DNA of 64,000 nucleotides from Candidatus Pacebacteria bacterium CG2_30_36_39 (GTDB lineage Bacteria; Patescibacteriota; Microgenomatia; UBA1400; PJMF01), in the NCBI GenBank assembly GCA_001873435.1, contig MNZB01000004.1:158980-222979 (forward strand), given 5' to 3'. The translations under genes and the position numbers were made by a program. The notes under the pieces were generated by a model. That model did no database searches, was not told the origin of the DNA, and saw nothing but the letters and a program-made list of their open reading frames with translations. Below, piece after piece: positions 3,980 to 57,415 of this stretch; positions within the stretch are counted from its first letter, which is position 1; every line of letters starts with the position of its first letter.

Positions 3980-4104
3980 AATTCAAACTCCCTGACTAGG
4001 AAGCTCAGCTTTAAATGTTATAGGATACTTTCATTGCTTTGTCAAGCAACAGCACAAACACTAGCTTTGTGCCTGGTAAAACTATATCACAGCCAGCCGG
4101 ACGC

Positions 4105-5772
4105 TTACACGTCTAAAATTACTGGAATAATGATTGGTTCTCGACGAATAACCTTGTAAAGTTTCTTTGAAAGCTGTCTCTCCAGCAAAGAAGCAACATC
4201 TTCATCTGTTTTTGCTTTACGACCGTCTTTCTCAAGAATCTCGACTGTTTGTAACTTGATAAAATCAATTACCTCAGTAGCTTCTTTAACAAAAACAAAA
4301 CCTTTAGAAACTACATCCATTTTGCTTAAATCTAATCTTCCATTTATACGTGGCAAAATCAAAACAATCATGCCAGCTTGAGACATTGAGCGTCGATCTG
4401 ATAAAACGGTTGGTCCTACATCACCAATACCAAGACCATCAACTGTTCTAGGTTTAATAGAAATCTTATCAACAACTCTAACTTCTCCATCCTTTAAACC
4501 TAAAACCTCTTCATGACCGGGAATCAAAGTAAACCCTTTTTTATATCCCAAAGACTGAGTGACATACTCCTTAAATTTAGCTCTATGACGATCCTCTCCA
4601 CCGATAGGCATAACAAACTTAGGATGAAGTAACTTTACCACTTCACGTTGTTCCACCGCACTAGCATGGCCTGATTTATGCAAATCATGATTAACATCAG
4701 GATAAATCACTGTAATACCATTACTTGCCAATTCATTAATGGCTCGGTAATAAGGAATTTCATTTCCAGGTATCACATTGGCTGAAAACACTACCTTATC
4801 ATCTGGCAAAATCTGAACCTGACGATGTTCACCGTAAACAGCCCTGATTAGAGATGAACCCTCTTGACCCTGACTTCCAGCGATCATAATACAAAGTTCT
4901 TTATCTCGATATTGATCCATATCTCTTTTATCAATCATTACACCATCTGGCATTTGCAATTTATTTAAATCCATAGCAATCTTGACGTTTTGCTCAACAG
5001 ATCGACCAATAAATGCTACTTTTCTACCCAATTTTTTAGCTGCATTAACTACCTGTTGAATACGATGAATATGAGAACTCATTAGGGTAATAATATATTT
5101 ACCCTTAGTATTAAGCATCAGCTTTTCCAATTCTGGACCAGTCTCTGATTCAGATTCGGTGCGGTCGAGATTTTCTACTCTCAAACAATCTATTAAAGCC
5201 AAAGTAATACCTTTATCACCCAATTCTTTCATTGTAGCTACATCTGTTTTTACCCCATCAATAGGATGTTCATCTAGCTTGAAATCTGAGCCATGATAAA
5301 TAACTCCTTCTGGGGTATTAATAACCAAATGTTTTGTATCAGGGACAGAGTGAGTAACTGCCAAACTCATTACGGTAAAATATTTACCATACTGAACTGG
5401 TTTAAGATCTTGAAAAACATTGATTTCAGTTTCAATACCTACATCCTGAAGTTTCTTATTGATAAAACCAACAGTCAAAGGAGATGCCCAAATCATTGGC
5501 ATGGTTTCAAATTCTGGCAAAACATATGGCAAAGCGCCCATATGATCTTCGTGACCATGAGAAATGGCAATGCCAACTACTTTTTTACCCTTGGCAATTT
5601 CCTCATGAAGATATGATGTGTCTGGAATTAAAGTATCAACTCCAGGCATATATTCATCTGGAAAACCAATACCACAATCGACAATTAGAATCTCATCTTC
5701 ATATTCATATAAATACATGTTTTGGGTTACTTTTCCTAGGCCACCCAATGGCACCAAACGTAATTCAGACAT
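4105..5772 (-). CDS. rnj: ribonuclease J (metallo-beta-lactamase / beta-CASP RNase)
   Basis: HGHEDHMGALPYV metallo-beta-lactamase motif. Overall 555-aa RNase J architecture. Confidence 0.85.
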   Translation of the reverse strand: MSELRLVPLGGLGKVTQNMYLYEYEDEILIVDCGIGFPDEYMPGVDTLIPDTSYLHEEIAKGKKVVGIAISHGHEDHMGALPYVLPEFETMPMIWASPLTVGFINKKLQDVGIETEINVFQDLKPVQYGKYFTVMSLAVTHSVPDTKHLVINTPEGVIYHGSDFKLDEHPIDGVKTDVATMKELGDKGITLALIDCLRVENLDRTESESETGPELEKLMLNTKGKYIITLMSSHIHRIQQVVNAAKKLGRKVAFIGRSVEQNVKIAMDLNKLQMPDGVMIDKRDMDQYRDKELCIMIAGSQGQEGSSLIRAVYGEHRQVQILPDDKVVFSANVIPGNEIPYYRAINELASNGITVIYPDVNHDLHKSGHASAVEQREVVKLLHPKFVMPIGGEDRHRAKFKEYVTQSLGYKKGFTLIPGHEEVLGLKDGEVRVVDKISIKPRTVDGLGIGDVGPTVLSDRRSMSQAGMIVLILPRINGRLDLSKMDVVSKGFVFVKEATEVIDFIKLQTVEILEKDGRKAKTDEDVASLLERQLSKKLYKVIRREPIIIPVILDV

Positions 5773-5787
5773 AATTTCCTTTCGAAA

Positions 5788-6414
5788 TTAAAATAATATT
5801 TCTTTTATTCCTTGTTTAAGACTTTCCGTTCCTCTTTGCTCTTTTATCCAAGTAAGAATCTTGGGAATTTTTTTAAAATCAGCAATGAATGACTCCATCA
5901 TTCTACTAGATCTTAAGGCTGCTGCGGGATGGTACATTGGTAAAACAAAAATATCCACTCCTTCCCACTGAACCTTATGCAATCTGCCATGAACTGCTGA
6001 TATTTTAACTTCTGGCAAAAATTTAGCCATACTAAAACGACCTAAGGTAACAATTATTTCAGGCTTTAAGATCTCTAGCTCCTGATTAAGATATGGTCTA
6101 TATGCCGCAATTTCAATAGGAGTAGGATCTCGATTTTCTGGAGGCCTAACTTTAACAATATTGCTAATAAAAACTTTAGCCGGGGGCAAACCAACTTCTT
6201 CCAAAACTTTTCTTAATAACTTGCCAGAACGACCAACGAATGGACGACGCTGCAAAGCCTCTTCTCTACCAGGAGCCTCACCAATACACATTATCTTCGC
6301 CCGAGAATCTCCTTCACCATGTACAATATCTGTTTTTTGAGTAGCAAGAGGTAATGTTTTGTAAGCAGCTTCTAGTTTTTGCTGTAATTCCTCAAGTAAA
6401 CCTGCATTATCCAT
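5788..6414 (-). CDS. uracil-DNA glycosylase, family 4
   Basis: GEAPGREE...RPFVGRSGKLL motif typical of family-4 UDG. Confidence 0.8.
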   Translation of the reverse strand: MDNAGLLEELQQKLEAAYKTLPLATQKTDIVHGEGDSRAKIMCIGEAPGREEALQRRPFVGRSGKLLRKVLEEVGLPPAKVFISNIVKVRPPENRDPTPIEIAAYRPYLNQELEILKPEIIVTLGRFSMAKFLPEVKISAVHGRLHKVQWEGVDIFVLPMYHPAAALRSSRMMESFIADFKKIPKILTWIKEQRGTESLKQGIKEILF

Positions 6415-6481
6415 AACTGTATGTTATCACAAAAGGGAGCCTTACGACTCCCTTTTTTATTTCTTTTTGTTTTACCAAAAC

Positions 6482-6793
6482 TTATTCAGTTAAATCTTTT
6501 GCAAGTTTAACATTGTTGTAAGTAGTCTTAGCTGCTGTTTCAATGAAATCATCAGCCAAGTCAGTTAAATCATCAGATGCTTTATCCAAAGTATCTGCCA
6601 TTTCACCATAAGAGTAAGCAGAAATTTTTTCTACTTCACCCATTTGAGCTAACAATTTATCTACTTTTGCTATATCTTCAGCAGACATTTGCTCTGGCAC
6701 ATCTTGCAAAGCAGTAACCACTGATTGATAAGTTTCTTCATCTAAGCCTTGGTTCTTTAGCTCAGCGAGAAGTTGTGTTTTAGTTGGTCCCAT
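6482..6793 (-). CDS. hypothetical small acidic protein
   Basis: 103-aa ORF, D/E rich, no recognised motif. Co-oriented downstream of the Lon-like ATPase gene. Confidence 0.4.
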   Translation of the reverse strand: MGPTKTQLLAELKNQGLDEETYQSVVTALQDVPEQMSAEDIAKVDKLLAQMGEVEKISAYSYGEMADTLDKASDDLTDLADDFIETAAKTTYNNVKLAKDLTE

Positions 6794-6821
6794 ATTTGTT
6801 CTCCTTTAAAAATATTTTCTA

Positions 6822-7478
6822 TTATTTAGCAAATCTACTCAACCAACCTCTTACTCCTGAAAAACTGGTAGCGTTTTGAGCAGCCTGTTGTTGCTTGGTT
6901 CTCTTTTCTTGAGCTTCCTGCTTTAATTTATCAGCAGCAGTCACAACTTGATCGCCATCTGTTTCTTGACTCTCATTGATAAGCTGATTAGCTGTCTCCA
7001 ATAGAGATTTAACACCCTCAGCGGCGGCTTTCAAAGCAGCGAGTTTTAGTTCGACGACTTTAGCTTCTGCTCTAGCTGGAAGACTATCAATAAAAGCTGA
7101 TAGTTGGTCCATCTTAGCAGCGGCTTTGTTAGTAATATCATAAGCACCTTGGATAACGTCTGCTTTAGCTTTTTCAATACCCATTTCAGCCTTGGTTCTT
7201 AGACTATCAGCGCCATCAACCAATTTACCTGGCCAAGAAGCAACTTCACCAGCTCCTTTTTTAACACCATCCCAAGCAGCTGCTCCAACTTCCTTTACTT
7301 TAGCCCAACTAGCACCCCAAGTCTCTCTACTTTGCTGACGCTTGGCATCACGAGCTTCTTGACGTGCTTTACCAGCATCTCTAGCATCAAATGACTTTTC
7401 AGCGGCTGCTCTTGCTGACTCAGAAGAGTAACTCTTTAGTACGTCTCCCTTTAAAAATGGTTTATTTGCTTCTCCCAT
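6822..7478 (-). CDS. hypothetical Ala/Lys/Glu-rich coiled-coil protein (LEA/phasin-like composition)
   Basis: 218 aa, amphipathic low-complexity repeats (AAEKSFDARDAGKARQEARDAKRQQ...). No signal peptide. Confidence 0.4.
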   Translation of the reverse strand: MGEANKPFLKGDVLKSYSSESARAAAEKSFDARDAGKARQEARDAKRQQSRETWGASWAKVKEVGAAAWDGVKKGAGEVASWPGKLVDGADSLRTKAEMGIEKAKADVIQGAYDITNKAAAKMDQLSAFIDSLPARAEAKVVELKLAALKAAAEGVKSLLETANQLINESQETDGDQVVTAADKLKQEAQEKRTKQQQAAQNATSFSGVRGWLSRFAK

Positions 7479-7508
7479 ATTTTCCTTTAACTTTTAGTTA
7501 CTTTATTA

Positions 7509-8003
7509 CTACTTATTCAATCCAGATCGGTATTTTTTTAATAAATTCAAAGCAAAACCAATACCACCAGTATTGCTCTTAGTTTCCATAGTAGCAGGTG
7601 CTTGAGTTGGTCGCAATGAGCTTAATGCATCAATATAGAAATCTACTTGGTCTGACTCAGCACTAGGCACTCTACCTTGTAATAAATCTTGAAGACTGTC
7701 AGCTCCATCACTTACTGAAGTTCCAGAAGATACTGTTTGTTTACTAGAAAAATCTTCCAATAAGGACAAAAGCTCATCAACTTGAGAAGCTCCTGAATCT
7801 CCATTATCTACAAAAGAATTAAGCATTTCTTCTAATTCTTTGATTGAATTATTACTAACAGTTTTTGCAACTGGAGCAGCAGCTCCACTCATCCTAGCTG
7901 AAACTTGAGCTTCAACTTCAGTTTTAATATATGCTTGTAACTCTGTAGCTAACTGAGCAAAAGCTTTTTGAAATATTTGATCATTCATATTTTTCTCTCT
8001 CAA
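7509..8003 (-). CDS. hypothetical protein
   Basis: 164-aa ORF, Ser/Asp-rich C-terminal half. No motif recognised. Confidence 0.4.
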   Translation of the reverse strand: MREKNMNDQIFQKAFAQLATELQAYIKTEVEAQVSARMSGAAAPVAKTVSNNSIKELEEMLNSFVDNGDSGASQVDELLSLLEDFSSKQTVSSGTSVSDGADSLQDLLQGRVPSAESDQVDFYIDALSSLRPTQAPATMETKSNTGGIGFALNLLKKYRSGLNK

Positions 8004-8067
8004 TAAATCACTGTTAAAAATTATATTCTTTTAGAGTTTTAAAAAAAATGTCTCAAAAAGTATCTTT

Positions 8068-9126
8068 CTAATACTTAGGCATGAATATTTTGGCATTTTC
8101 CTTAGTAATCACTACCTTATCAAAACCACGCTCAACAATAATACGCACTACTTTACGTACTGCTCCCTGCAATGTTCTTTGCAAAGTACGAATACCCATG
8201 TCATAACCCAAAGGACGAGTGATAATTGGCCAAACATCTTCATGTAAATCAAATTGCTCTGGTCTTAAACCTGCATCAGTCAATAAACCTGGCAATATAT
8301 ATTTCTTAGCAATTTGAATCTTCTCATTATCAGTGTATGAAGGCATAGAAATCTTTTCCATACGATCCATAACAGCAGTAGCAATCTTAGTAGTATTGTT
8401 AGCAGTAGCTAAGAAAATAGCATGACTTAAGTTAACTGGATAATCGATATAAGTATCTGTAAAAGCATTATTCTGAGCAGGATCAAGCAACTCAACTAAG
8501 ACACCCATAATATCCATATTAGCTTCTTCAGCTCCACGATCAATTTCATCTAACAAAATAACTGGATTACGAACACCAGCTTCACAAATTCCTTTAATAA
8601 CTCTTCCTGGCTCTGAACCAAGCAATAAGCGTGAATTACCACGAAGTTCTTTTGCTGATCCCATACCACCAAAAGGGATGCGCACCAACTGACGACCCAA
8701 TGCCTCAGATAACGAATAGGCAAAAGTAGTTTTACCTGTACCCACCAAACCAACAAGCAACAGAATAGGAGCTTTAAATTCTTCCCCGGGAGCTTGTTTG
8801 TTGCGTAAATTTAAAATAGAGATATATTCCAAAAAACGATCTTTAACTTCCTGCATACCATAGTGATGTTTATCAAAAACAGCCTTAGCTTTTTCAATAT
8901 CAGTCACGTCTTGAGATTCTTTTAGCCAAGGAATTTGGAGCACCCAGTTTACATAACGAGAAACTTTTTCATATTTTTCATCATAACTACCAAGTTCAAC
9001 ACTACGCTCAAGAGAAACAATCTCTTTTTCAACCTTACCCTTCATATCCTCTGGAAGGGAAGCTTGAATTGCCCTGTCACGAAGGTCTTTAATTTCTTGC
9101 TGAAGAATGTGTTTATAGTCTGTCAT
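8068..9126 (-). CDS. Lon-family AAA+ ATPase module without LAN and protease domains
   Basis: Aligns by eye to the Lon helical linker plus AAA+ core: YVNWVLQIPW, Walker A LVGLVGTGKTT, Walker B ILLDEIDR, sensor ATANNT, alpha subdomain GIRTLQR. The ORF ends right after the AAA+ alpha subdomain. No Ser-Lys protease domain. Confidence 0.8.
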   Translation of the reverse strand: MTDYKHILQQEIKDLRDRAIQASLPEDMKGKVEKEIVSLERSVELGSYDEKYEKVSRYVNWVLQIPWLKESQDVTDIEKAKAVFDKHHYGMQEVKDRFLEYISILNLRNKQAPGEEFKAPILLLVGLVGTGKTTFAYSLSEALGRQLVRIPFGGMGSAKELRGNSRLLLGSEPGRVIKGICEAGVRNPVILLDEIDRGAEEANMDIMGVLVELLDPAQNNAFTDTYIDYPVNLSHAIFLATANNTTKIATAVMDRMEKISMPSYTDNEKIQIAKKYILPGLLTDAGLRPEQFDLHEDVWPIITRPLGYDMGIRTLQRTLQGAVRKVVRIIVERGFDKVVITKENAKIFMPKY

Positions 9127-9141
9127 GGGCAGCTGGCAGTT

Positions 9142-9717
9142 TTACTCCAACTCTGTTGGTGGAGTCTCAACTGAATCTATCTCTTCTGGAAGATTCGAGA
9201 CAGGCAGAACCTGCTGTGTTACTACTCCCAGACCAATTAAAAACATACCGGCCATTACCATTAAAAAAGTATTCGCTACTCCACCAGTTGCAGGTAGGGT
9301 TGCGGTACTACTCTCGGTAGCACCACCAACACCAGTGGTAGTGGTAGTTGTGGTAGAAGAAGTGCTTGTAGTAGTAGTGGAATTAATTAACAAAATATAG
9401 TCCAAAGATTCCAAATTAGAAGCCAACTTCAATGGATGGGCACTGGCTGTTAATGCAGTAATCGGCGTATAGCTCCAATCACCGGCAGAATCTGCTAGCA
9501 CTGCTACCGTTAAATCATCAATTGTAATATCGATCGTAGCATCTGGAGAAGCTTTACCAATTAAAGTAGGAGTTGTATCTGTCGTGCTAATACTAATTAA
9601 AGCACCAACAGAAGTACCGCCAGCACTAATTAGCTGCAAAGTTGCTGCCATAGCAACAGCTTTTACACTAAATAAAATTACCAAAAACAAGATAGCGATA
9701 CGCAAATATCGAAACAT
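9142..9717 (-). CDS. secreted Thr-rich surface protein with LPATG sortase-type sorting signal
   Basis: Probable start at MFRYLRIAILFLVILFSVKAVA (signal peptide). Poly-Thr/Ser linker. LPATGG followed by a hydrophobic helix near the C-terminus. The ORF-track start at 9771 lies upstream. Confidence 0.5.
   Translation of the reverse strand: MFRYLRIAILFLVILFSVKAVAMAATLQLISAGGTSVGALISISTTDTTPTLIGKASPDATIDITIDDLTVAVLADSAGDWSYTPITALTASAHPLKLASNLESLDYILLINSTTTTSTSSTTTTTTTGVGGATESSTATLPATGGVANTFLMVMAGMFLIGLGVVTQQVLPVSNLPEEIDSVETPPTELE
9335..9380. repeat. low-complexity trinucleotide repeat (ggt/agt units) encoding the poly-Thr/Ser linker
   Basis: Reiterated ggtagtggtagttgtggtag...gtagtagtagtgg units visible in the sequence. 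Confidence 0.5.
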
Positions 9718-11378: not shown

Positions 11379-12053
11379 CTACTCACCTAGTTGAAGGTAA
11401 TGAGAATATTGTTCACAGAAATCAGAAGCTTGCCAAAGAGTACTACCAATAGCAAAAGAACTAATACCTAATTTAATTATTTGTGGCAAATATTCTTCTG
11501 TTACACCACCGTCAAAGATTATTTCTGGAAAATTTTCTTGCTGACGCTCTAAACGGTGAATTTGAAAAAAATCCTCAATTTTTTCGAAAACAAAAGGCAC
11601 TAACTTTTCTTCCTGAAAACCCGCTTGAATACCCATAAATTGCACAATATCTAATTGATTCACAATACCTTCATCCAGAGCCTCCAAGTCAGTATAGGCA
11701 TCAAGAGACAAACCAACTTTTAAATCCATTTTCTTAACCTCTGTCACAAAATCCTGCTGATAAGTCATGCGTTCAACCTGAGCAATAATTGCTCTTAAAG
11801 GCAAATGTTCTCTAACCGTGGCTATTTCCAAAATGGTATCCATTGGTTCTTCCACCATTAAATGCAAATCTAACTCCAAATCACCAAAATCAATTTCCAA
11901 TAAATTATGTGGAGAAGCAGTAATATTATCTGCAAAAAAACCATCAATGATATCAATCTGCACAATCTCAACATCTGGACAAGACTTTGCTTTGTCTACT
12001 TGTTGCTGGATTGTTTCTAAGGAATCAGTTAAAACTGCTGGATAAATTTTCAT
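11379..12053 (-). CDS. rpe: ribulose-phosphate 3-epimerase-like TIM-barrel protein (divergent)
   Basis: IYPAVLTDSL...VQIDIIDGFFADNIT...DLHLMV...FDGGV parallels Rpe (HFDVMDNHYVPN...DVHLMV...VDGGV). The first metal-ligand His appears replaced by Gln. Confidence 0.6.
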   Translation of the reverse strand: MKIYPAVLTDSLETIQQQVDKAKSCPDVEIVQIDIIDGFFADNITASPHNLLEIDFGDLELDLHLMVEEPMDTILEIATVREHLPLRAIIAQVERMTYQQDFVTEVKKMDLKVGLSLDAYTDLEALDEGIVNQLDIVQFMGIQAGFQEEKLVPFVFEKIEDFFQIHRLERQQENFPEIIFDGGVTEEYLPQIIKLGISSFAIGSTLWQASDFCEQYSHYLQLGE

Positions 12054-12505
12054 GACATTTCCTCTTCATAATTTGCAATTTGACCAATACGCCTAGCATG
12101 GCGAGATTCACCTGAAAATGGAGTATTTAGAAAAGCCTCAACAATCTTTTTAGCTTTTTCTGTAGAAGCAACAAAATCTGCCCCAAGAACTAAAATTTGG
12201 GCATCATTATCTGTTTTAGCATGACTAGCTTCTTTTTCATCAGAAGCAGCTACTGCTCTTATTCCCTTCACCTTATTTGCAGCGATAGTAGCTCCACCTC
12301 CAGATCGACATATTAGAATGCCAACCGAATTGGCTTCTTGCTGAACTTTTTCCGCCACATTAAAACTTATTTCTGGATAATCATCTCCTGGATCTAAAAA
12401 ATCAGCACCACAATCTTCTACAAGATGTTTCTTTTCTTTAAGAAAAGAAATTAGAGTATTTTTTAAATCATAGCCACCGTGATCGGCGCCAATAAATATT
12501 TTCAT
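12050..12505 (-). CDS. rpiB: ribose-5-phosphate isomerase B
   Basis: MKIFIGADHGGYDLK...ICRSGGGATIAANK, typical RpiB/LacAB. Confidence 0.85.
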   Translation of the reverse strand: MKIFIGADHGGYDLKNTLISFLKEKKHLVEDCGADFLDPGDDYPEISFNVAEKVQQEANSVGILICRSGGGATIAANKVKGIRAVAASDEKEASHAKTDNDAQILVLGADFVASTEKAKKIVEAFLNTPFSGESRHARRIGQIANYEEEMS

Positions 12506-27276: not shown

Positions 27277-28746
27277 TTAAATTTCGTCGTCATCCTCTTT
27301 TTTGTAAGCAATGATAATGTCACCTACTTGGAAATCGAGTTTCTTGTTTCTAAAAGTTAGGCCTGCTTCATTTTTGGTTTTTACTACCAAAATATCATCT
27401 TTGCCATGTTTCATATTAGCAATTACTGGATTGGCGATAATAGCTTCAGCTCTCTTGAGATGTAATAGATCAGATTTTTTAACTTCACCAGTTTTTACCT
27501 TAATTCCAGCGATGTGATCGCCTTTCATCTCAAAAACTTGCATAATTTCAGCTTCACCAGTAACTACCTCATCAATAGTCGGTTCCATGATTTTTAACAT
27601 TAATTTTTGAAGATCTTCAATAAGGTGGTAAATAATGCCGTATTCTTTAACTTTAACTCCAAGACTTTTAGCAAAAATCTTAGTAGCACGAGGAACCTTA
27701 AGGTTAAAGGCTATTACCATAGCTTTGCTGGTTTCTGCTAATTCAAGCTCTTGGTCAGTGACTGGACCAACGCCAGATGAAACTAAATTAACACTTTCAG
27801 GATCAATATTTTGCTCAATTGCCTCAAGAGTACCTTTGACATCAGCTTTGACAATTAAATTAAGTTTAAATTTTTCACCAAAAGCAGTGCCAAAATCTAC
27901 AGTTGCCCATGGATTGTAAGCTTGTTTCAGCTCTTCTCCAGCAACTTCCTCCACATATTCTCTATTTTTTTCTTTCACAATAGAGCCAACTTCTGGAATA
28001 TCTCTCAAACCAACAATTTCTGCTGGTGATCCAGGTAAAACATTACCGAGTTGTTTACCATATTCATCACTCAATAACTTGACTCTACCTTCAATTTCAT
28101 CAATAAAAATATCTTGACGAACTTTTAAAGTTCCCTGTTGGACAATGACACTAGCAACTGGACCTTTTTGAATGTCTTTGGCAGATTCAATTACAACAGC
28201 TTCCAAAGGAGCCTCTGGATCGGCTTTAAGTTCCATAAGCTCTGCCATGAGTGAAATGGTTTCTAGTAATTTATCAACTCCTTTGCCTGTTTTGGCAGAA
28301 ACTTCAACTACTTCAATGTCACCACCAAAATCTTGCACAATTACTTGTTGTTCGGCTAATTGAGCTTTAACGTTATCTATTCTGATACCTTCTACATCAA
28401 TTTTATTCATTGCTATTAAGAAAGGTACATTTGATTCTCTTATGTAGCGGATTGATTCAATCGTCTGTGGTTTGACCCCATCATTAGCAGCTACAACAAG
28501 AATAACAATGTCGGTAATTTGAGCACCACGTTGACGCATTTTATTAAATGCAGCGTGGCCAGGAGTATCGATAAAGGTAATTTTTTTACCCTTATGATCA
28601 ATTTGATAGGCACCAATATGTTGAGTAATTCCACCTTCTTCTTTAGCTTGAACGTTAGTTTTACGAATGTAATCCAACAAACTAGTTTTACCATGATCAA
28701 CATGACCTAAGATCGTAATAATGGGTGGACGTGTAATCATGGCCAT
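27277..28746 (-). CDS. infB: translation initiation factor IF-2 (short form lacking N-terminal domains)
   Basis: G-domain GHVDHGKTSLLD, DTPGH, NKID motifs, then IF-2 domains II-IV. Only 489 aa. Confidence 0.85.
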   Translation of the reverse strand: MAMITRPPIITILGHVDHGKTSLLDYIRKTNVQAKEEGGITQHIGAYQIDHKGKKITFIDTPGHAAFNKMRQRGAQITDIVILVVAANDGVKPQTIESIRYIRESNVPFLIAMNKIDVEGIRIDNVKAQLAEQQVIVQDFGGDIEVVEVSAKTGKGVDKLLETISLMAELMELKADPEAPLEAVVIESAKDIQKGPVASVIVQQGTLKVRQDIFIDEIEGRVKLLSDEYGKQLGNVLPGSPAEIVGLRDIPEVGSIVKEKNREYVEEVAGEELKQAYNPWATVDFGTAFGEKFKLNLIVKADVKGTLEAIEQNIDPESVNLVSSGVGPVTDQELELAETSKAMVIAFNLKVPRATKIFAKSLGVKVKEYGIIYHLIEDLQKLMLKIMEPTIDEVVTGEAEIMQVFEMKGDHIAGIKVKTGEVKKSDLLHLKRAEAIIANPVIANMKHGKDDILVVKTKNEAGLTFRNKKLDFQVGDIIIAYKKEDDDEI

Positions 28747-30256: not shown

Positions 30257-31126
30257 TTAAAGGCCAGCTTCCTGTAGTTCTTTAAGAAGATTTTTTTGTT
30301 CTCGAGAAAGTTTTTCTGGTACATCGACCACTATTCTCACATAAAGATCACCATTTCCTCTAGATTTAAGGTGAGAAACACCCTCTCCGCGCAAACGAAT
30401 TAAACTGTGAGACTGTGTTCCTGGTCTAATCTTCATCTTGAGCTTATCTTCCTTCAGGGTAGGGATCTCAATTGTGCCACCCAAAGCAGCTGTGGTAATA
30501 GATATTTTTTCAGTAATAAATACATCATAGCCATCACGTTGGAAACGATCATGAGGTTTTACCTCGATAGTAATATCAAAATCTTCAAAACGAATTCTTG
30601 TGCCATCATTTGCACCAGCGGGAATCTTGACTTTTTGTTTTTGACCTTGGATTTCAACTTCTTTTGTTACGCCATGAACTGCTTCCATAAATTCGATGGT
30701 TAGACCATAGCGCTGGCGCCTGGCTGCTCGAGAAAATCCACCACCAAAGAATGATTCAAAAATTTCAAAAGGATCGTTAAAGTCTATATCTGGACCACCT
30801 TGTCCACCTGATGTTTGATAACTCCAGGTGAATGGACCTCCCTGAGCTCCAGCGAATGGGTTTCCTCCACCTGCTCCACCACCAAAACCGCCTCGAGATG
30901 GGTCAAAGGCTGCATGGCCAAATTGATCATAGGTTTGACGTTTTTGGTCATCAGATAAGACTTGATAAGCTTCATTAATTTCTTTAAATTTTGCCTCAGC
31001 GTCTTTTTCTTTGTTTTTATCTGGATGAAACTTTAAAGCCATTTTGCGATAGGCAGATTTAATTTCTGCCTGAGAAGAGGTTTTGCTTATTCCTAATATA
31101 TCGTAATAATCTCGCTTAGTTGCCAT
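30257..31126 (-). CDS. DnaJ-family co-chaperone, type II (J domain + G/F region + C-terminal domains, no zinc finger)
   Basis: J domain with HPD (KFHPDKN), Gly/Phe-rich linker, no CxxCxGxG repeats. CbpA/Sis1-like architecture. Confidence 0.8.
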   Translation of the reverse strand: MATKRDYYDILGISKTSSQAEIKSAYRKMALKFHPDKNKEKDAEAKFKEINEAYQVLSDDQKRQTYDQFGHAAFDPSRGGFGGGAGGGNPFAGAQGGPFTWSYQTSGGQGGPDIDFNDPFEIFESFFGGGFSRAARRQRYGLTIEFMEAVHGVTKEVEIQGQKQKVKIPAGANDGTRIRFEDFDITIEVKPHDRFQRDGYDVFITEKISITTAALGGTIEIPTLKEDKLKMKIRPGTQSHSLIRLRGEGVSHLKSRGNGDLYVRIVVDVPEKLSREQKNLLKELQEAGL

Positions 31127-31220
31127 AGATTAAGAGATTGTAACAAGGAAGTCTTAAAAAATTAAGCAGAGAAAATGGATGATTGCTAAATATAAAATAA
31201 TTAATATTTAGTCCTATAGT

Positions 31221-31249
31221 ATTGACATATTGGATACTATTTGCTATAA
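31221..31249 (+). promoter_or_regulatory. consensus sigma70-type promoter
   Basis: TTGACA - 17 nt spacer (tattggatactatttgc) - TATAAT. Lies about 230 nt upstream of the TPM-domain gene. Confidence 0.6.
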
Positions 31250-31407
31250 TTTCTTGTTATTTAAAAACTAACATTGCCTACTTCTCAGTAAAATTACTGG
31301 TCGGTAGGGAGTATTAGTTTTAGTCTGGCGGTTGCCGTCAGAATTAAAAATATTCACTCCAGAACCTTAACAACTTCAAGATTATTTTCGAATATTTTCT
31401 CTATTTT

Positions 31408-31464
31408 GGGGATCAAACTAGCGAGTCTTGATCTCAATGATTGAGGCTTGCTAGTCATATCCCC
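31408..31464 (+). promoter_or_regulatory. extended imperfect stem-loop in the 5' leader immediately upstream of the SD
   Basis: GGGGAT...ATCCCC outer pairing and ACTAGCGAG/CTTGCTAGT inner pairing (one G-U) enclose small internal hairpins. The GGAGG SD follows at 31471-31475 and the ATG at 31482. Confidence 0.4.
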
Positions 31465-31481
31465 AAATTTGGAGGCTGCAC

Positions 31482-32324
31482 ATGCAGATTCAAAAAAGTT
31501 TTATCCTCTTGGGCTTTGCTTTGCTGATTGTTCTCGCGCCGTTAGGCGTGGCTCAAGCACAAGGCGCTTTGCCCCCGGTTCCGCCTGCTCCTGTAGGCGA
31601 GAACTATATTGTCGACCAGCTCGGATGGCTTAACGCCGACCAGGCTGGAGAAATCAATACCATCGTGACAAATCTCGACCGCGAAGGCCTGGCCGAAATC
31701 GCTATCCTGACTACTACGGATTGCGGTGACGACTATAAGCGCTATCGCTACGAGGTGTTCAACACCTGGGGTGTGGGACATGCAAATGATAACGATGGCT
31801 TGCTCATCGCTGTTTGTTGGGGTGAACCCGGCAAACGCAATATTGAGCAGGAACCGGGCTATGGCATGGAAGGCACTCTCCCCGACCTCTTGCTCAACAA
31901 GGTGGTTAAGGAAGTATATTTGCCTTACCAGACTGCCAAACGAAATGGCGATGGTCTAGTTGCTATGGTGAGAACCTACAACGAAATCATTCGTGGCGGA
32001 AGCTACGAGTCTGCCATGCAAAATGCCCTGCAACCGTTGAAAGATGACGGTCAATATGTGGCCCCAGAAACCAAAGAAATGACCAGTGACGAGGCTTGGG
32101 CGCTTTTATTCGCCACGCCTTTCATGGGTTTGACCTGCGGGATCTGGATCATTATTGCGGTAGTACTGTTTTTCGCTTACTACTTTTATGCCATCTCACA
32201 AGGATGGATTAAGCCTGGTACTGGAAACTATACCGGCGGCAATGATGGCGGCAATGACTCACCCTCCAGTCCGTTTGGAGGTGGAGATAGCGGTGGTGGT
32301 GGAGCATCTACCAACATCGGCTAA
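31482..32324 (+). CDS. TPM-domain (TLP18.3/Psb32/MOLO-1 phosphatase-like) protein with C-terminal TM helix and Gly-rich tail
   Basis: Signal peptide. YIVDQLGWLNADQ...IAILTTTD...GLLIAVCWGEPGKRNIEQEPGYGMEGTLPD matches TPM domain consensus. TM helix then GGNDGGND...GGGDSGGGG tail. Gene GC far above background. Confidence 0.8.
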   Translation: MQIQKSFILLGFALLIVLAPLGVAQAQGALPPVPPAPVGENYIVDQLGWLNADQAGEINTIVTNLDREGLAEIAILTTTDCGDDYKRYRYEVFNTWGVGHANDNDGLLIAVCWGEPGKRNIEQEPGYGMEGTLPDLLLNKVVKEVYLPYQTAKRNGDGLVAMVRTYNEIIRGGSYESAMQNALQPLKDDGQYVAPETKEMTSDEAWALLFATPFMGLTCGIWIIIAVVLFFAYYFYAISQGWIKPGTGNYTGGNDGGNDSPSSPFGGGDSGGGGASTNIG

Positions 32325-32366
32325 AGTAAGACCATATCCAAAAAGCTCAAGGAGCAAAGTAAGACC

Positions 32367-33014
32367 ATGAATAAAACTCTCTTAACAATCGGCGCCGTCT
32401 TAGGCGTCGTGCTCGTCTGTGTCCTGGTTGCCGGCGCCATTTTTGTTAGCGCCTACAACAAACCGATGACGCTCAAGCTCAATGCTGAAGAGCAAATCGG
32501 CAACGTCGCAGTGATGCTTCAGCGCCAAGCTGATGTCGTCATTAATGCGCAAGCTGGCTTCGGTCAGATTGCCGCGTTGGACAATGCGCAGGTATTGGGA
32601 TATGTCGCGGAAGCCAAGGCTATCGGCGGTATGCTTGAACCACTCTGCAAAGATGGTCAGTGCAACCTCCCGGAAGACCCGGCTGAACGACAAAAACTGT
32701 TGGACGCGATGGCTCAGTTTGATAACCAATCCCGCAACTTCATCGCTTATGTGCAGACCCACTCAGAACTGCGCGCCGCAGATGCATTTGATGACATGAT
32801 GATCAGCATTGAGGGTTCCGCCAACCGCGTGAGCACTCAGCGCTTAATCATGAATCAGTACATCGGCGACTACAAAGAACACTGCGTTAATTTCCCTGGC
32901 AGTTTCTTTTGCTCGATGCGCGGGCTGACTGGAAACGAGTTTGGGTTCTACACCGTGGATGAGAGCAAACAAGAGGCTCCCACTCCCGGATACCCAACAC
33001 CCGTTCTGCCCTAA
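32367..33014 (+). CDS. lemA: LemA-family membrane protein
   Basis: N-terminal TM helix then EEQIGNVAVMLQRQADVVINAQ resembling the LemA core (E-x-V...QLQRRADLIPNLV). Adjacent to the TPM gene as in many bacteria. High GC. Confidence 0.7.
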   Translation: MNKTLLTIGAVLGVVLVCVLVAGAIFVSAYNKPMTLKLNAEEQIGNVAVMLQRQADVVINAQAGFGQIAALDNAQVLGYVAEAKAIGGMLEPLCKDGQCNLPEDPAERQKLLDAMAQFDNQSRNFIAYVQTHSELRAADAFDDMMISIEGSANRVSTQRLIMNQYIGDYKEHCVNFPGSFFCSMRGLTGNEFGFYTVDESKQEAPTPGYPTPVLP

Positions 33015-33137
33015 ACCTCACTCGCTCTGAGGGCCTATTTAACAAAAATATGCATCAAGAAATTGGATGCAAGTAGAAGTCTCGCTGAAGACTCTGTTAA
33101 AAGGCAAATGAGTGCCATATCTTGAAGTTTTAAGTAT

Positions 33138-33170
33138 AAAAGGCTGCCGGGTTAAACTGGCAGCCTTTTT
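33138..33170 (+). terminator. rho-independent terminator after lemA
   Basis: ggctgcc-gggttaaact-ggcagcc hairpin followed by TTTTT. Confidence 0.6.
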
Positions 33171-33199
33171 GCTGCTAATTTCACTTTTTATTAAAAACA

Positions 33200-33493
33200 T
33201 TAATTAACTAAAATATTTTGATGACCTCTTTTTCGCCAAATCTCAACACCATGATCTTCAACAGTAAAAGCATCATAATGATCTCCTGCAGCATTAGTAG
33301 CTACTCTCTCAGTTATTTGATTAACTGATTCAGTAGCATAAAGCAATTGACCACAAGTCCAACAAAAAACTACCAAATCATTTTCTTTTAAGAAATCTTG
33401 TAATTCACTGGGGATTAAATCTTCTTCCTTGATTGGAGCAGTTTTTGCATTTTCAATCATAATTTGCCTTTCTTCATATTTAACCACCACCAA
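33200..33493 (-). CDS. hypothetical small protein
   Basis: 97-aa ORF (VVFCWTCGQ segment). Probable real start MIENAK at about 33460, directly after the yfhO stop. Confidence 0.35.
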   Translation of the reverse strand: MVVVKYEERQIMIENAKTAPIKEEDLIPSELQDFLKENDLVVFCWTCGQLLYATESVNQITERVATNAAGDHYDAFTVEDHGVEIWRKRGHQNILVN

Positions 33494-36612: not shown

Positions 36613-36641
36613 TTGACTTTATTGCTATTTTATCCTATAAT
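36613..36641 (+). promoter_or_regulatory. near-consensus sigma70-type promoter
   Basis: TTGACT - 17 nt - TATAAT. Confidence 0.5.
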
Positions 36642-36762
36642 ATATAGATATTGGATATAAATTACCCCTCTTAACCCATTGCGGGTTGTGGTGGTGGTTT
36701 AGCAACCAATAACAGTTCTTTAACTTATTGAGTAAAAGGTGTTTTAAAAAATTAACTTTTAG

Positions 36763-36840
36763 CTCACAAGTTTGAAAATTTATTTTATTTGTTTTCAAGC
36801 TTGTGAGTTAAAACAACCTGAGTTGAGTAAATCAACTCAG
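36763..36840 (+). promoter_or_regulatory. two palindromes in the leader of the lipoprotein gene (16-bp stem hairpin and a perfect 9-bp stem hairpin)
   Basis: ctcacaagtttgaaaa / ttttcaagcttgtgag (1 mismatch) with 13-nt AT loop. Then ctgagttga-gtaaa-tcaactcag. The GGAG SD and GTG start follow. Confidence 0.4.
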
Positions 36841-36862
36841 AGATTAATTTGGAGAAAATACC

Positions 36863-37330
36863 GTGAAAACTAGTAAATACATCCTAACCACTTTGCTCTT
36901 AATCCTTGCTTTTGTCAGCTTCGGCTGCGGAGCAGCCATTGATGATGGCATCTATCAGGTTCAGATCACACTGGAACTTGAAACCGAAGGAACTTCGGTT
37001 GTATCAGCAACGGATCAGCAAAGACAGGACCAAGTTGTGAACTTTGCGCCAGGAGGATATTGGGACTCGTATTATCAAAGAGGAACGTTGAGAGGCACTA
37101 TTGTCTCAGTCGTTTCTAAAAACGAGAAACAAGTCAAAAATAGCGCAGGCTTAGACGCCGGTCAAATCATCATTATTGAGACCATGGATGAAAAAGTGCT
37201 CAGCCTAGTGGCTGGTGACACCGTCAAGCTCGACTGCAGAACAGTACTATTGGACGATGATTCCACACCGGAAGGCGTGCGATACAACGCTCCACACTAC
37301 TGCAAAGTCGTTGAAATTGTCACTAAATAA
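36863..37330 (+). CDS. hypothetical lipoprotein (elevated GC)
   Basis: GTG start with GGAG SD. Signal peptide ending in lipobox VSFGC. 155 aa. GC visibly above neighbours. Confidence 0.6.
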   Translation: MKTSKYILTTLLLILAFVSFGCGAAIDDGIYQVQITLELETEGTSVVSATDQQRQDQVVNFAPGGYWDSYYQRGTLRGTIVSVVSKNEKQVKNSAGLDAGQIIIIETMDEKVLSLVAGDTVKLDCRTVLLDDDSTPEGVRYNAPHYCKVVEIVTK

Positions 37331-37352
37331 ACTCAATGGTTCAAGACTCAAT

Positions 37353-37386
37353 AAAAAAAGCCTTGCTGCAAAGCAAGGCTTTTTTA
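37353..37386. terminator. bidirectional rho-independent terminator
   Basis: aaaaaaa-gccttgc-tgcaaa-gcaaggc-ttttttt. Confidence 0.65.
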
Positions 37387-37400
37387 CGTCTATTTATGTT

Positions 37401-38384
37401 TTAAAAACTTATTAAATCAAGCACTTTTATCCAGAAACTTTGATCCATGCCTGTAAAATCTCCTGTTTCAGCATCAACAGTATATTGAGCTGCAACTTCA
37501 ACTGGAATAAACCACAGCAATTTTTCTTGTTTTTGAGTAGCAACTTTATATTCCAAGCCATTACCACCTTCAACTAAATCAATATTTTCTTGGTTATAAC
37601 TAAAGTCAGCTTGTTCTTCTAAAATTTGTTTGGCTTTATCAGGTGAAATGCCAAGTTTCACCAAACCAACCACAGTTTCAACAAATACCTCACCATTATC
37701 AGGATCGACTGTTAAAGGTAACTCCACTTGAGCACCCAAAACGCCATCGTTAATTTCCAAATGATCATCTTTATGTCTAATATATAGGTTTCTTTTTTCT
37801 GAAACTTTAATTTTCAACTCTTGTTCTTTAACTTTATATTCAAGTTTTGAAGGTTGTTTTGGATTAACACTTTGTTTAACAGTTACCTCTAATTCTTTAC
37901 CTGCTTTAGTTTTTATCTTCAACTCCTTTAGATCACCAGAACCATAAACCTTGTTTTCCAACTGTAACTCTTGACCTTCTTCGTCATCATGATCTTCACT
38001 TTTTAATTTTCTTTCTTCAATTAATTTACCTGATGAGTCATAAGTCTTCATTTCAACTTCAACTTTACCAGCTTCTTCTTGTCTCTTGATGTAAGTAGTA
38101 CTACCCATAGCATTTTTAATTTCTTCTTCTGAAGAATGATCATCCGCTTGCTCATCTTCATCATCTTTTTCGTCTTCCTGCTCATCCTCATCGTTTTCTT
38201 GTTCTTCTTCTTGTTTATTCTCCTGCTCATCCTCATCGCCCAAAACTTGACCATCACCAAAGATCATTGCCACCAATTCGGTTGTATTTGCTAAAGCTGG
38301 CTTTGAAATATGTTTACCAAACAAAGCAAACATAAATATAAAAAAAATTATTAATAGTAATTTTTTATTATTCATAGTTTTCAT
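37401..38384 (-). CDS. secreted protein with long poly-acidic (D/E/Q) tract
   Basis: Probable start MKTMNNKKLLLIIFFIFMFALFG (signal peptide). 50-aa DEDEQEN-type tract, then a K/E-rich domain. Confidence 0.5.
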   Translation of the reverse strand: MKTMNNKKLLLIIFFIFMFALFGKHISKPALANTTELVAMIFGDGQVLGDEDEQENKQEEEQENDEDEQEDEKDDEDEQADDHSSEEEIKNAMGSTTYIKRQEEAGKVEVEMKTYDSSGKLIEERKLKSEDHDDEEGQELQLENKVYGSGDLKELKIKTKAGKELEVTVKQSVNPKQPSKLEYKVKEQELKIKVSEKRNLYIRHKDDHLEINDGVLGAQVELPLTVDPDNGEVFVETVVGLVKLGISPDKAKQILEEQADFSYNQENIDLVEGGNGLEYKVATQKQEKLLWFIPVEVAAQYTVDAETGDFTGMDQSFWIKVLDLISF

Positions 38385-38424
38385 TATATGGGTGAAATCT
38401 AACAAATTTAAGTGATAAATCTTA

Positions 38425-56653: not shown

Positions 56654-56661
56654 CAAATCAT

Positions 56662-56694
56662 AAAAAGACCCGCAATTACGCGGGTCTTTTCTTT
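56662..56694 (+). terminator. rho-independent terminator after tRNA
   Basis: agacccgc-aatta-cgcgggtct followed by TTTTCTTT. Confidence 0.65.
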
Positions 56695-56711
56695 AAAATT
56701 TGCCTTTGGAT

Positions 56712-57215
56712 TTATTTGCTACGATAATCATTCTCAGGAGAAACAGTGAAATACTGCTGCATCCTAGGATAGATCGTGTCGCAAACATAATCTCCTGGAT
56801 AGACCACTGGATTAGCAGAAAGAAGTGAAGTCCAATCATAGAGCTCAAGCCAATCATCAGTGATTGAAACCTGATTCTCCATATGAACAACTTCTATCAC
56901 TTGCCCAACAGGACCGCCCAATTCATGAGCAGAATTCCCTGCCAAATCACTGAGAGTACCAACAACTCCTTTATCCACCACAAAACCGCAGACATGCCAA
57001 TCAGTTGACAAATTATCTTCGTTAGAGAGACTCTCAACATATCGAGAGACATCACTAGTGGGGGTAGGAGGAGGAGCCTCAGTTACAATGGGGACAATCA
57101 CTACTTCCGTAGCTATCACAGGAACAGGTGGAGGTTCAGTTGCAATAGCGCCACAACCAGAACTCACCACCAAACCCAAAAAACAGAAAAACAAAATTAC
57201 ATGGTAACGCTTCAT
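56712..57215 (-). CDS. hypothetical lipoprotein (elevated GC)
   Basis: Signal peptide with lipobox VSSGC, Pro/Thr-rich linker, C-terminal domain with 3 further Cys. AGGAGG SD 8 nt upstream. Confidence 0.55.
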   Translation of the reverse strand: MKRYHVILFFCFLGLVVSSGCGAIATEPPPVPVIATEVVIVPIVTEAPPPTPTSDVSRYVESLSNEDNLSTDWHVCGFVVDKGVVGTLSDLAGNSAHELGGPVGQVIEVVHMENQVSITDDWLELYDWTSLLSANPVVYPGDYVCDTIYPRMQQYFTVSPENDYRSK

Positions 57216-57415
57216 ACGTCACCTCCTATTAGAATTTCTGGTTTCTGGTTTTCCAAAGTTATCTTAAAGTGCGATCTATCTCTCCCTACCCGGGAGACGG
57301 CAACCGTCTTTAAGGCTCAGGAGAAACTTTTCACCAGACCCTCCATTGTAACTAAAAACAACCAAAAAGTCAATATTATAGGATATAAATATGATTAAAA
57401 ACCCCTAGAAACAAC

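Follow-up and report, generated by a model that had tools for sequence, protein, structure and literature searches.

A GC-rich TPM-LemA gene pair of a Microgenomates-group bacterium as possible swapped cargo inside an rRNA-operon-like expression cassette

The window analyzed here is a 64,000-nucleotide stretch of the genome of Candidatus Pacebacteria bacterium CG2_30_36_39 (contig MNZB01000004.1, positions 158,980 to 222,979). Between the housekeeping genes dnaJ and yfhO it encodes, on the opposite strand, a TPM-domain protein and a divergent LemA-family protein, both from genes of unusually high GC content. With about as much confidence as doubt, we read this pair as a horizontally acquired envelope module, swapped as cargo into an rRNA-operon-like expression cassette of Microgenomates-group bacteria of the Candidate Phyla Radiation (CPR). 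A broader version, for which doubt has the slight edge, is that the cassette is a portable format for accessory envelope genes. It would combine an extended promoter, a boxA-type loading site for Nus factors and a gene-specific helix between leader and trailer, with a hammerhead in some trailers, and foreign GC-rich cargo would be swapped in and out. An earlier note on this DNA, made from the letters alone, had treated the leader as merely structured, and it missed both the boxA-like element and the pairing of the leader with the trailer.

The pairing is the central observation. Leader positions 31372-31382 (AACTTCAAGAT) are perfectly complementary over 11 nucleotides (nt) to trailer positions 33119-33129, as found in the repeat search, and with one bulge the match becomes a 16-bp duplex (31366-31382 with 33119-33134; -16.9 kcal/mol). 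Perfect complements are also present in related cassettes from metagenomic loci, here numbered with the prefix L, wherever a locus includes both ends: 11 nt in L001, 12 nt in L102, 14 nt in L011, 13 nt in L104, 16 nt in L017 and 10 nt (extendable) in L019. The complement brackets the coding region and covaries between lineages, in the manner of an rRNA-type leader-trailer helix. The flanking positions of the leader strand read ...AAGAT, ...AAGAG, ...AAGAGGTTTA or ...AAGAGTATAAAA, and each version is matched by its own trailer. Cassettes with other cargo carry unrelated sequences at the same offset (TCAAAGCAT, AAGACGGATTT, CACAAATTA and TTATTGAGT), and these too complement their own trailers, often right at the stop codon. 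The sample comes from five or six lineages of one CPR superphylum. In all 12 cassettes the leader strand pairs with its own trailer, with a perfect match of 9-16 nt, and in all 12 it begins 10-17 nt from the first base of the boxA-like motif. At a single locus, a search of 300 x 300 nt gives a p value of only about 0.05 or less. Over 10 independent cassettes, cognate matches sum to 107 nt, whereas non-cognate combinations average 68 and reach at most 81. None of 7,419 derangements reached the observed total in an anchored permutation test, and duplex energies gave the same result.

Complementary motifs of this kind might instead be DNA inverted repeats that bound an invertible (phase-variable) segment or mark the ends of a mobile element. 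Repeats of 11-16 bp do flank exactly the segment made up of the Shine-Dalgarno (SD) sequence and the open reading frames (ORFs), with the promoter outside, and a Xer-type recombinase is encoded 2 kb upstream in L001. However, both repeats always lie within the transcription unit, four such units follow one another in L019, and no recombinase adjoins the cassettes of the window, L011, L017 and L019, which represent four of the five lineages. The repeat sequences are unrelated between cargo types, so there is no common recombinase site, and all 10 independently assembled contigs (two species) show a single orientation. We consider this explanation very improbable.

The second component is a boxA-like motif. 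Only one stretch of primary sequence is conserved among the leaders (GAACCTTAACAACTTCAAGAT in the window, GCACTTTAACAACTTCAAGAG in L001, GCTCTTTAACAATTCAAGAG in L017 and GCTCTGTAACAAG...TTCAAGAA in L019). Its first half resembles boxA, the antitermination site of rRNA operons at which NusB/S10 binds, with the published consensus GYTCTTTAANA (PMC5725501). The Escherichia coli rrnB leader reads TGCTCTTTAACAATT and ...GGCAC TGCTCTTTAACAATTTATCAGACAATCTGTGTGGG (PMC10803263). L017 carries TGCTCTTTAACAATT, identical to the rrnB leader over 15 nt. The homologous leader position holds GCTCTTTAACA in L017 and L019 and GCACTTTAACA in L001 and L104. The consensus is matched perfectly by L017 and by one L019 cassette, and with one mismatch by L001, L104, L023 and two further cassettes of the window, whose genes encode proteins of 155 and 167 amino acids (aa). 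The motif is not tied to TPM and LemA, as it also leads unrelated genes: those for the 155-aa and 167-aa proteins, a 431-aa gene in L023, and four cassettes in L019. The conserved stretch is absent from Chloroflexota leaders. An exact-motif scan of viral contigs returned 52 matches, approximately the chance expectation for 16 specified bases.

Each boxA-like motif sits behind the same type of extended promoter, CCTATARTA-TTGACW-17-TAtAaT, and the upstream element CCTATARTA-TTGAC is common to the cassette promoters of the window, L001, L102, L106, L017, L019, L021 and L023. This promoter type is rare. Two copies occur in the window, where near-consensus promoters number only four, and four more are found in approximately 700 kb of DnaJ-encoding loci, where three belong to cassettes next to dnaJ in L021 and L023. 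The promoter of the TPM-LemA pair, TTGACA-17-TATAAT with an additional TG (31222-31250), agrees with the consensus at 12 of 12 positions; the earlier note had it right to within one base (31221-31249). The note's view that the unit has its own promoter holds only in part, because the promoter is real but is shared, at 85-92% identity, with L021 and L023, and in L023 it drives a different gene. Positions 31156-31243 are 85% identical to the region upstream of dnaJ in L021 (DnaJ 81% identical), and positions 31210-31248, including the spacer, are 92% identical to the promoter of the 431-aa gene in L023, with the similarity ending at the -10 hexamer. Given that close relatives have the same promoter with different cargo, the site behaves as a cassette frame.

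The TPM and LemA genes stand out clearly from their host in composition. In a 300-nt sliding window, GC content rises from approximately 0.33 to 0.48-0.54 over positions ~31450-33020 and then declines again. No other excursion in the 64 kb is as large, and at 1-kb resolution no other stretch exceeds 0.45. The GC content and the GC content of third codon positions (GC3) are 0.512 and 0.537 for the TPM gene and 0.526 and 0.611 for the LemA gene. The 67 other ORFs of at least 80 aa have values of 0.364±0.032 and 0.249±0.046, with a maximum GC3 of 0.46, which places the GC3 of the pair 6-8 standard deviations from the background. GC content at first and second codon positions is within, or at the upper edge of, the host range, and thus the anomaly is mainly synonymous. 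Under host codon usage, the synonymous-codon log-likelihood per codon is -1.461 for the pair and -0.911±0.066 (minimum -1.122) for 34 host genes (z about -8). References of moderate GC content fit the codons of the pair better (L001, -1.21; an Anaerolinea contig, -1.14). The sliding-window and codon checks that the earlier note had proposed thus both set the pair apart from the genome background. Its description of a GC-rich pair in AT-rich surroundings is correct for the pair but not for every neighbor, which it put at about 35% GC, as the gene at 36863-37330 has a GC content of 0.453. The same 18-20 kb were assembled from several independent metagenomic samples with 0-1 differences, which rules out a chimera. 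The assembly L008 shows 27 differences, all at the contig end inside dnaK, and these are a contig-end artefact. No signal of strain polymorphism or of inversion was found in six assemblies.

We examined synteny in 80 metagenomic loci that encode DnaJ relatives, screened with the window proteins. Six of them (L025, L026, L030, L032, L034 and L035; DnaJ 60-67% identical) have the order dnaK-GT2-yfhO-dnaJ-nusA-infB on one strand. In these relatives, at least six in number, yfhO ends approximately 100-175 nt before dnaJ with no cassette between them; in more distant relatives dnaK adjoins dnaJ. None of the 80 DnaJ loci has a homologue of TPM or LemA. The adjacency of yfhO and dnaJ in relatives implies that the pair was inserted, in opposite orientation, into a co-directional housekeeping array, and the synteny comparison suggested in the earlier note therefore supports an insertion. 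In the closest relative with upstream sequence, L023 (DnaJ 78% identical), the same spot holds divergent genes for a 238-aa lipoprotein and the 431-aa membrane protein. The surroundings of the cassette hold no ORF for an integrase or transposase, no tRNA target and no direct repeats, and the only flanking repeats that might be insertion scars are AT-rich 11-12-mers at chance level (repeat I11). The ORF list and the repeat search thus bear out the note's remark that integrase and flanking repeats are lacking. Taken alone, the GC-rich TPM-LemA islet is an ordinary, clear and well-supported case of horizontal acquisition.

The origin of the pair is less simple than the earlier note had supposed. 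That note envisaged a plain, recent and un-ameliorated transfer of a self-contained unit from a high-GC phylum, an account we now regard as improbable. It does fit the GC3 of 0.54-0.61 against 0.25 in the host, codon usage 8 standard deviations from that of the host, the absence of the unit from syntenic relatives, and the TPM domain, which is 47-50% identical to Chloroflexota proteins. However, no homologue from a high-GC phylum is among the matches. The closest homologues are rare proteins on CPR-type contigs and in Anaerolineae/Chloroflexota, with an overall GC content of 40-58%, and the closest full-length relatives are on CPR-type contigs. About 14 proteins are close relatives of the TPM protein (43-54% identical), and for the nearest relatives of both proteins identity spans 43-68%. 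Several Anaerolineae/Chloroflexota loci have TPM followed by LemA (GC 0.49-0.58). For the divergent LemA subfamily, every contig that could be examined is of CPR type (L001, L011 and L104), and the rest are short contigs of uncertain origin. The promoter is homologous to promoters of relatives with other cargo, and Chloroflexota loci lack both the leader motif and the pairing, which are CPR features. Four-fold degenerate sites are saturated relative to the best contig-borne relative (four-fold site divergence, d4, above 2). From this and from the 43-68% identities it follows that the donor is unsampled and that a recent date is not demonstrable. Insertion and foreign codons therefore stand from the original claim, whereas recency does not, and a lack of amelioration is not the sole reading.

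That last point rests on other CPR genomes. The cassette is GC-richer than its host in several other AT-rich CPR genomes, including L011 and L104, where the background GC is ~0.40 and that of the cassette ~0.50 (a flanking gene there is 60% identical to one in L017, a Shapirobacteria metagenome-assembled genome with a background of ~0.40). By comparison, L001 is an 80-kb contig with CPR-type gene content and a GC of 0.48 in which the TPM-LemA pair has the local composition, and L019 (Cerribacteria) has a GC of 0.45. The cassette of L011 and L104 has remained at the same locus through a d4 of 0.62-0.76 (1.18 for the flank), and its GC at four-fold sites is 0.39-0.52, compared with 0.34 for the flank. 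The pattern fits either partial amelioration or a force that maintains GC. Thus, a GC-rich cassette can persist, and recent arrival is not the only explanation. Selection without transfer would go further: the genes would be long-term CPR residents in which GC3 is kept high either by biased gene conversion or by selection, for example on mRNA structure or stability or on a slow pace of membrane-protein translation. Consistent with this, GC3 is 0.47-0.65 for LemA and 0.44-0.54 for TPM in every host, although that of the neighbors varies from ~0.25 to ~0.7, and all three boxA-type cassettes of the window are among its GC-richest ORFs. The L011/L104 values, which also suit selection, are equally compatible with partial amelioration from about 0.6, and none of the sampled relatives of the host has the pair at the syntenic position. 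We see only a slim chance that selection alone accounts for the composition, and return to acquisition into a resident cassette.

We can outline how such a cassette might work. The module would comprise a secreted, membrane-anchored TPM protein and the divergent LemA protein, placed at a variable spot between yfhO and dnaJ. The extended near-consensus promoter, CCTATARTA-TTGACA-17-TATAAT, would fire, and the leader would form hairpins and then expose the boxA-like sequence. NusB/S10 and other Nus factors could load there, so that polymerase might resist premature termination on a foreign, oddly composed mRNA for membrane proteins. In the model for rRNA, boxA with NusB bound to it keeps the leader strand tethered to the polymerase for as long as the trailer has not emerged (PMC10250234). 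Nus loading would likewise keep the leader of the cassette at the polymerase until its trailer appears, when the leader-trailer helix could form and bracket both ORFs. The helix might be cut by a double-strand-specific RNase, giving an mRNA with defined paired ends, or it might clamp the ends; either outcome would set the stability and translation state of the mRNA. Re-initiation may also be favored, because half of the cassettes have a trailer strand in contact with the stop codon. The long hairpin would mask the SD sequence, and the bidirectional terminator would close the unit and insulate the converging yfhO operon. That boxA acts outside rRNA, on mRNAs and CRISPR arrays, has been described (PMC5725501, PMC7665894).

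Several observations weigh against this reading. The window copy of the boxA-like motif, GAACCTTAACA, departs from the E. coli-derived consensus at three positions (2, 3 and 5) and thus may not bind NusB/S10, although boxA is known to drift between phyla. The helices are short for an RNase III of E. coli type (11-17 bp perfect, and 16 bp with a bulge in the window), and the second and third cassettes of the window match over only 9 and 7 nt. A scan of 27 window ORFs revealed no nusB, nusG, rho or rnc gene. In L011 (for example ACGCACAATCGCGTGTGTTTTTT), L104, L001, L102 and L019, hairpins that resemble terminators and are followed by U runs occur in the interval from the promoter to the boxA-like site; these could be attenuators and are left unexplained by the proposed mechanism. 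A TPM/LemA operon of Parcubacteria (one locus) lacks the format, so its range is limited. Finally, the donor is unsampled, with best identities of 52-54% for TPM and 68% for LemA.

These points bear most directly on the Nus factors. The pairing could be real and the boxA likeness coincidental or vestigial, in which case the helix would control stability or translation in the manner of icaR and hbs, with the genes still being acquired cargo. The statistics of the pairing hold whether or not the motif is boxA, and a window boxA as degenerate as 8 of 11 positions makes pairing without Nus factors quite possible. Interactions of the 5' untranslated region (UTR) of bacterial mRNAs with the 3' UTR are documented (PMC3868564, PMC5737220), and the trailer strand abuts or overlaps the stop codon in six cassettes, suggesting coupling to translation. 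Nevertheless, an 11-nt boxA that is perfect or has one mismatch recurs at the same leader position in cassettes whose cargo and pairing sequences are not related. Ahead of it stand a strong promoter and a hairpin, the arrangement of rrn leaders, and the SD sequence takes no part in the pairing, unlike in icaR. Pairing that acts without Nus factors is, on balance, unlikely, but is the alternative that we take most seriously.

If the interpretation with boxA is correct, CPR bacteria, which have tiny genomes and few recognizable regulators, would have a standard module for expressing the membrane and surface genes that they acquire. This module would call on the Nus antitermination machinery, which is universal, and tie both ends of the mRNA together. 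Such a strategy has so far been described for rRNA, and boxA alone for a few mRNAs and CRISPR arrays. It would account for the expression of genes that have a foreign composition and were inserted head-on into operons of housekeeping genes. The combination of promoter, boxA and leader-trailer complement would provide a searchable signature for mobile accessory genes of uncultivated CPR bacteria. The cassettes would also be natural test cases for the antitermination complex as an RNA-folding chaperone that holds the leader until the trailer appears. The single parts are known; what we regard as new is their combination (promoter, boxA fused to a gene-specific helix, SD-masking hairpin and terminator) around swappable, often GC-atypical envelope genes. 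In the literature searched, neither boxA nor antitermination is connected with CPR bacteria by any paper, and we found no report of an rRNA-operon-like layout around protein-coding genes in the searchable literature.

The window has two further cassettes of this type (Table 1). The second has a structured leader of ~220 nt (-75 kcal/mol) and a 9-nt match between leader (36725) and trailer (37346), and its bidirectional terminator (37357-37387) is perfect. Its gene has a GC3 of 0.46 and a codon log-likelihood of -1.39, and has no Pfam match. GT2 and dnaK are adjacent in L025, and in the window the 155-aa gene and an AT-rich 334-aa ORF (37401-38405) lie between them; thus, this unit and the 334-aa ORF are a second insertion of the same kind. 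The third cassette is upstream of two tRNA-Met genes. Its gene has a GC3 of 0.33 and no Pfam match, and the leader-trailer match is 7 nt. Outside the window, L019 carries four cassettes in a row (2890-9310), which encode TPM-LemA and proteins of 344, 244 and 328 aa. Three of the four have a recognizable near-consensus promoter, all have GCTCT[G/T]TAACA, and in all four the leader-trailer complement ends at or just past the stop codon. A tmRNA gene is located just upstream of this row (1916-2315, minus strand).

Type III hammerhead cores (CUGAUGAG...CGAAA, with three helices that differ between loci) were recognized in the trailers of L001 (11691-11745), L104 (~3985-4040) and L017 (~7610-7670), in each case downstream of the pairing strand. 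Rfam backs only the L001 hammerhead, weakly (E 0.018); those of L104 and L017 come from reading the sequences by hand, and Rfam does not call them. For the window trailer a hammerhead was considered and rejected, as CTGAAGAC is present but is not followed by GAAA or helices and Rfam reports none. Just downstream of the L001 cassette, a tRNA gene adjoins a group I intron (12004-12431, minus strand; Rfam E 1.7e-16). Introns in tRNA genes of Patescibacteria are the topic of a 2025 preprint.

Table 1. Features of the TPM-LemA cassette, the neighboring small ORF and the two other cassettes of the window.
Feature	Position	Strand	Description
Extended promoter	31213..31250	+	Upstream element CCTATAGTA, -35 TTGACA (31222-31227), 17-nt spacer, TG-extended -10 TATAAT (31245-31250)
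Leader hairpin 1	31264..31321	+	Imperfect 28-nt inverted repeat (minimum free energy (MFE) fold; repeat I2)
Leader hairpin 2	31324..31342	+	TCTGGCGG-TTG-CCGTCAGA, directly upstream of the boxA-like site (MFE fold)
boxA-like element	31362..31372	+	GAACCTTAACA, 8 of 11 positions of GYTCTTTAANA
Leader strand of helix	31366..31382	+	CTTAACAACTTCAAGAT
Long SD-masking hairpin	31399..31474	+	~31 bp (MFE and centroid fold; repeat I1)
Shine-Dalgarno GGAGG	31471..31475	+	6 nt before ATG
TPM-domain protein	31482..32324	+	280 aa; signal peptide, TPM domain, C-terminal transmembrane helix, Gly-rich tail FGGGDSGGGG
TPM-LemA spacer	32323..32368	+	13-nt direct repeat AAAGTAAGACCAT, two copies (repeat search)
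Divergent LemA-family protein	32367..33014	+	215 aa; N-terminal transmembrane helix, helical bundle
Trailer strand of helix	33119..33134	+	ATCTTGAAGTTTTAAG, 105 nt after LemA stop, 4 nt before terminator (repeat I12)
Bidirectional intrinsic terminator	33138..33173	.	AAAAGGCTGCC-loop-GGCAGCCTTTTT; fold and inverted repeat I7
Small AT-rich ORF	33200-33493	-	86-97 aa, between cassette and yfhO
Second cassette	36613..37390	+	TTGACT-17-TATAAT, leader with GTTCTTTAACT, 155-aa lipoprotein-like gene 36863-37330, terminator
Third cassette	56655..57381	-	CCTATAATA-TTGACT-17-TACAAT, GACGGTTGCCGTC hairpin, GCACTTTAAGA, 167-aa lipoprotein gene 56712-57215, terminator

The leader of the TPM-LemA cassette (31257-31490) folds at -86.8 kcal/mol, compared with -47.1±4.6 kcal/mol for shuffled sequences (z = -8.6), in agreement with the earlier description of a structured leader of ~230 nt. 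Strong structure is general in the CPR cassettes (z from -4.8 to -8.7 overall, and from -4.8 to -7.7 in seven related leaders), and L001 and L102 differ by compensatory double changes at 13 base pairs. The window leader gave no informative alignment with those of L001 and L102 beyond the promoter and the boxA/helix region. The GACGGTTGCCGTC hairpin upstream of the boxA-like element of the 167-aa cassette is nearly the same as hairpin 2 (31326-31340), which by analogy may occupy the position of boxB. At the base of the long hairpin, CUCUA pairs with UGGAG of the SD sequence, and equivalent SD-masking hairpins are present in L017, L019 and L106. The terminator arms (33138-33153, AAAAGGCTGCC; 33154-33169, GGCAGCCTTTT) are followed by a T run, and the A run on the other side makes the terminator bidirectional. 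It ends the cassette and faces the converging operon of yfhO and the small ORF, whose stop is at 33200. Fold and inverted repeat confirm the strong terminator that the note had placed at 33138-33170.

In the window, neither leader nor trailer yielded a credible Rfam match at gathering or at E-value thresholds. No rRNA genes were found in the window or in the loci of relatives examined. Three candidate elements were rejected. A second promoter at the TTAACA of the leader motif has neither a spacing nor a -10 hexamer conserved between lineages, and a leader peptide in L011 is not conserved in L104. A likeness to dif/Xer sites or to integron attC core sites lacks a dyad and any RYYYAAC match.

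The identities of both proteins are as the earlier note had given them, each family being matched above its Pfam gathering score. The TPM protein matches PF04536 (TPM_phosphatase) over residues 43-166 (69.8 bits against a cut-off of 22.1; E 2.8e-19), its relatives in the PDB are 2kw7 (E 1e-11), 7tbr and 5anp, and C81 and C112 are invariant in the family alignment. The LemA protein matches PF04011 (49.9 bits against a cut-off of 26.2; E 3.9e-13), and the profile of its subfamily matches PDB 2etd (E 1.3e-13). This structure is also the top Foldseek match of the AlphaFold model (pLDDT 76; probability 1.0, TM 0.59 on the target). The subfamily is very rare, with about 10 clusters among 5.8 billion proteins even when a profile search is included. 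C94, C99, C173 and C182 are invariant within it, and the window protein is only 21-32% identical to the canonical LemA of L013, L014, L017 and L019. From their sequences, TPM and LemA are probably an extracytoplasmic, membrane-associated pair for envelope maintenance. The searchable literature on LemA/TPM function holds only expression data from membrane stress (stress regulons). In the 42-nt spacer between the genes, one copy of AAAGTAAGACCAT lies over the TPM stop and the other over the LemA start.

The genes that flank the cassette were identified with Pfam as DnaJ (J domain and C-terminal domain) and a YfhO-like membrane protein, as the note had proposed. They do not both adjoin the unit, because the small ORF at 33200-33493 separates it from yfhO. 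This ORF has no Pfam match and no homologue in the 80 DnaJ loci of relatives, and the ATGA overlap of its sequence with the yfhO stop suggests translational coupling. The DnaJ of the window (30257-31126, minus strand) has 289 aa, with J and C-terminal domains and no match to the zinc-finger domain. IF-2 (27277-28746, minus strand) has only 489 aa, which suggests that an N-terminal region is missing. Nearly all genes of the window are on the minus strand, and the GC skew is persistently negative. Close relatives vary at another junction as well: ~4.5 kb are inserted between dnaJ and nusA in L022 (957-5444), and in L023 two small genes of 86 aa each (3552-4569) follow dnaJ in place of nusA.

As a gene pair, the window TPM and LemA are adjacent and co-directional, like the LemA/TPM (YgcG-type) pairs of many bacteria, and the glycine-rich tail of the TPM protein resembles that of YgcG. 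They differ by the order TPM-then-LemA and by the rare, divergent LemA subfamily with four cysteines. As an insertion, the pair shares with genomic islets an atypical GC content and codon usage and absence from syntenic relatives. It differs from them in lacking an integrase, a tRNA target and direct repeats, and in having a promoter that is resident at the site, which makes it look like replacement of cargo inside a fixed cassette frame.

The closest parallel to the cassette is the rRNA operon, whose leader has the elements boxB-boxA-boxC and the Nus-factor antitermination complex (rrnTAC), and for which leader-trailer helices around 16S/23S rRNA have been described (PMC10250234). The elements follow one another alike, with a strong promoter first, then a hairpin, a boxA of GCTCTTTAACA type, and a leader strand that pairs with a trailer beyond the cargo. 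In both, the helix covaries while the boxA part stays constant. The cargo differs, as cassettes of the window type enclose one or two protein-coding ORFs with an SD sequence. In E. coli rRNA the leader strand (boxC) is 18-19 nt downstream of boxA and the helices are 25-40 bp, whereas in the CPR cassettes the strand begins inside or directly after boxA and the helices are shorter (9-17 bp perfect). The CPR cassettes also add an SD-masking hairpin and an intrinsic terminator.

A boxA-type motif in a leader other than that of rRNA is also described for the 5' UTR of suhB and other mRNAs (Baniulyte et al., 2017) and for the leaders of CRISPR arrays (Stringer et al., 2020). The boxA of suhB, at ~50 nt or less from the start codon, represses the gene, and CRISPR arrays are non-coding. 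In the CPR cassettes boxA precedes the start codon by 100-175 nt and is joined to the leader-trailer helix, and the accessible text of the mRNA and CRISPR work (PMC5725501, PMC7665894) does not describe a trailer partner sequence. Pairing of 5' and 3' UTRs is documented in bacteria for Staphylococcus aureus icaR and Bacillus subtilis hbs (PMC3868564, PMC5737220), and these share with the cassettes a long-range intramolecular pairing of both untranslated mRNA ends. The icaR 3' UTR pairs with the SD sequence itself, whereas the CPR partner is upstream of the SD hairpin, beside the boxA-like site. Unlike icaR and hbs, the CPR arrangement is a recurrent format, seen with many genes and in many lineages.

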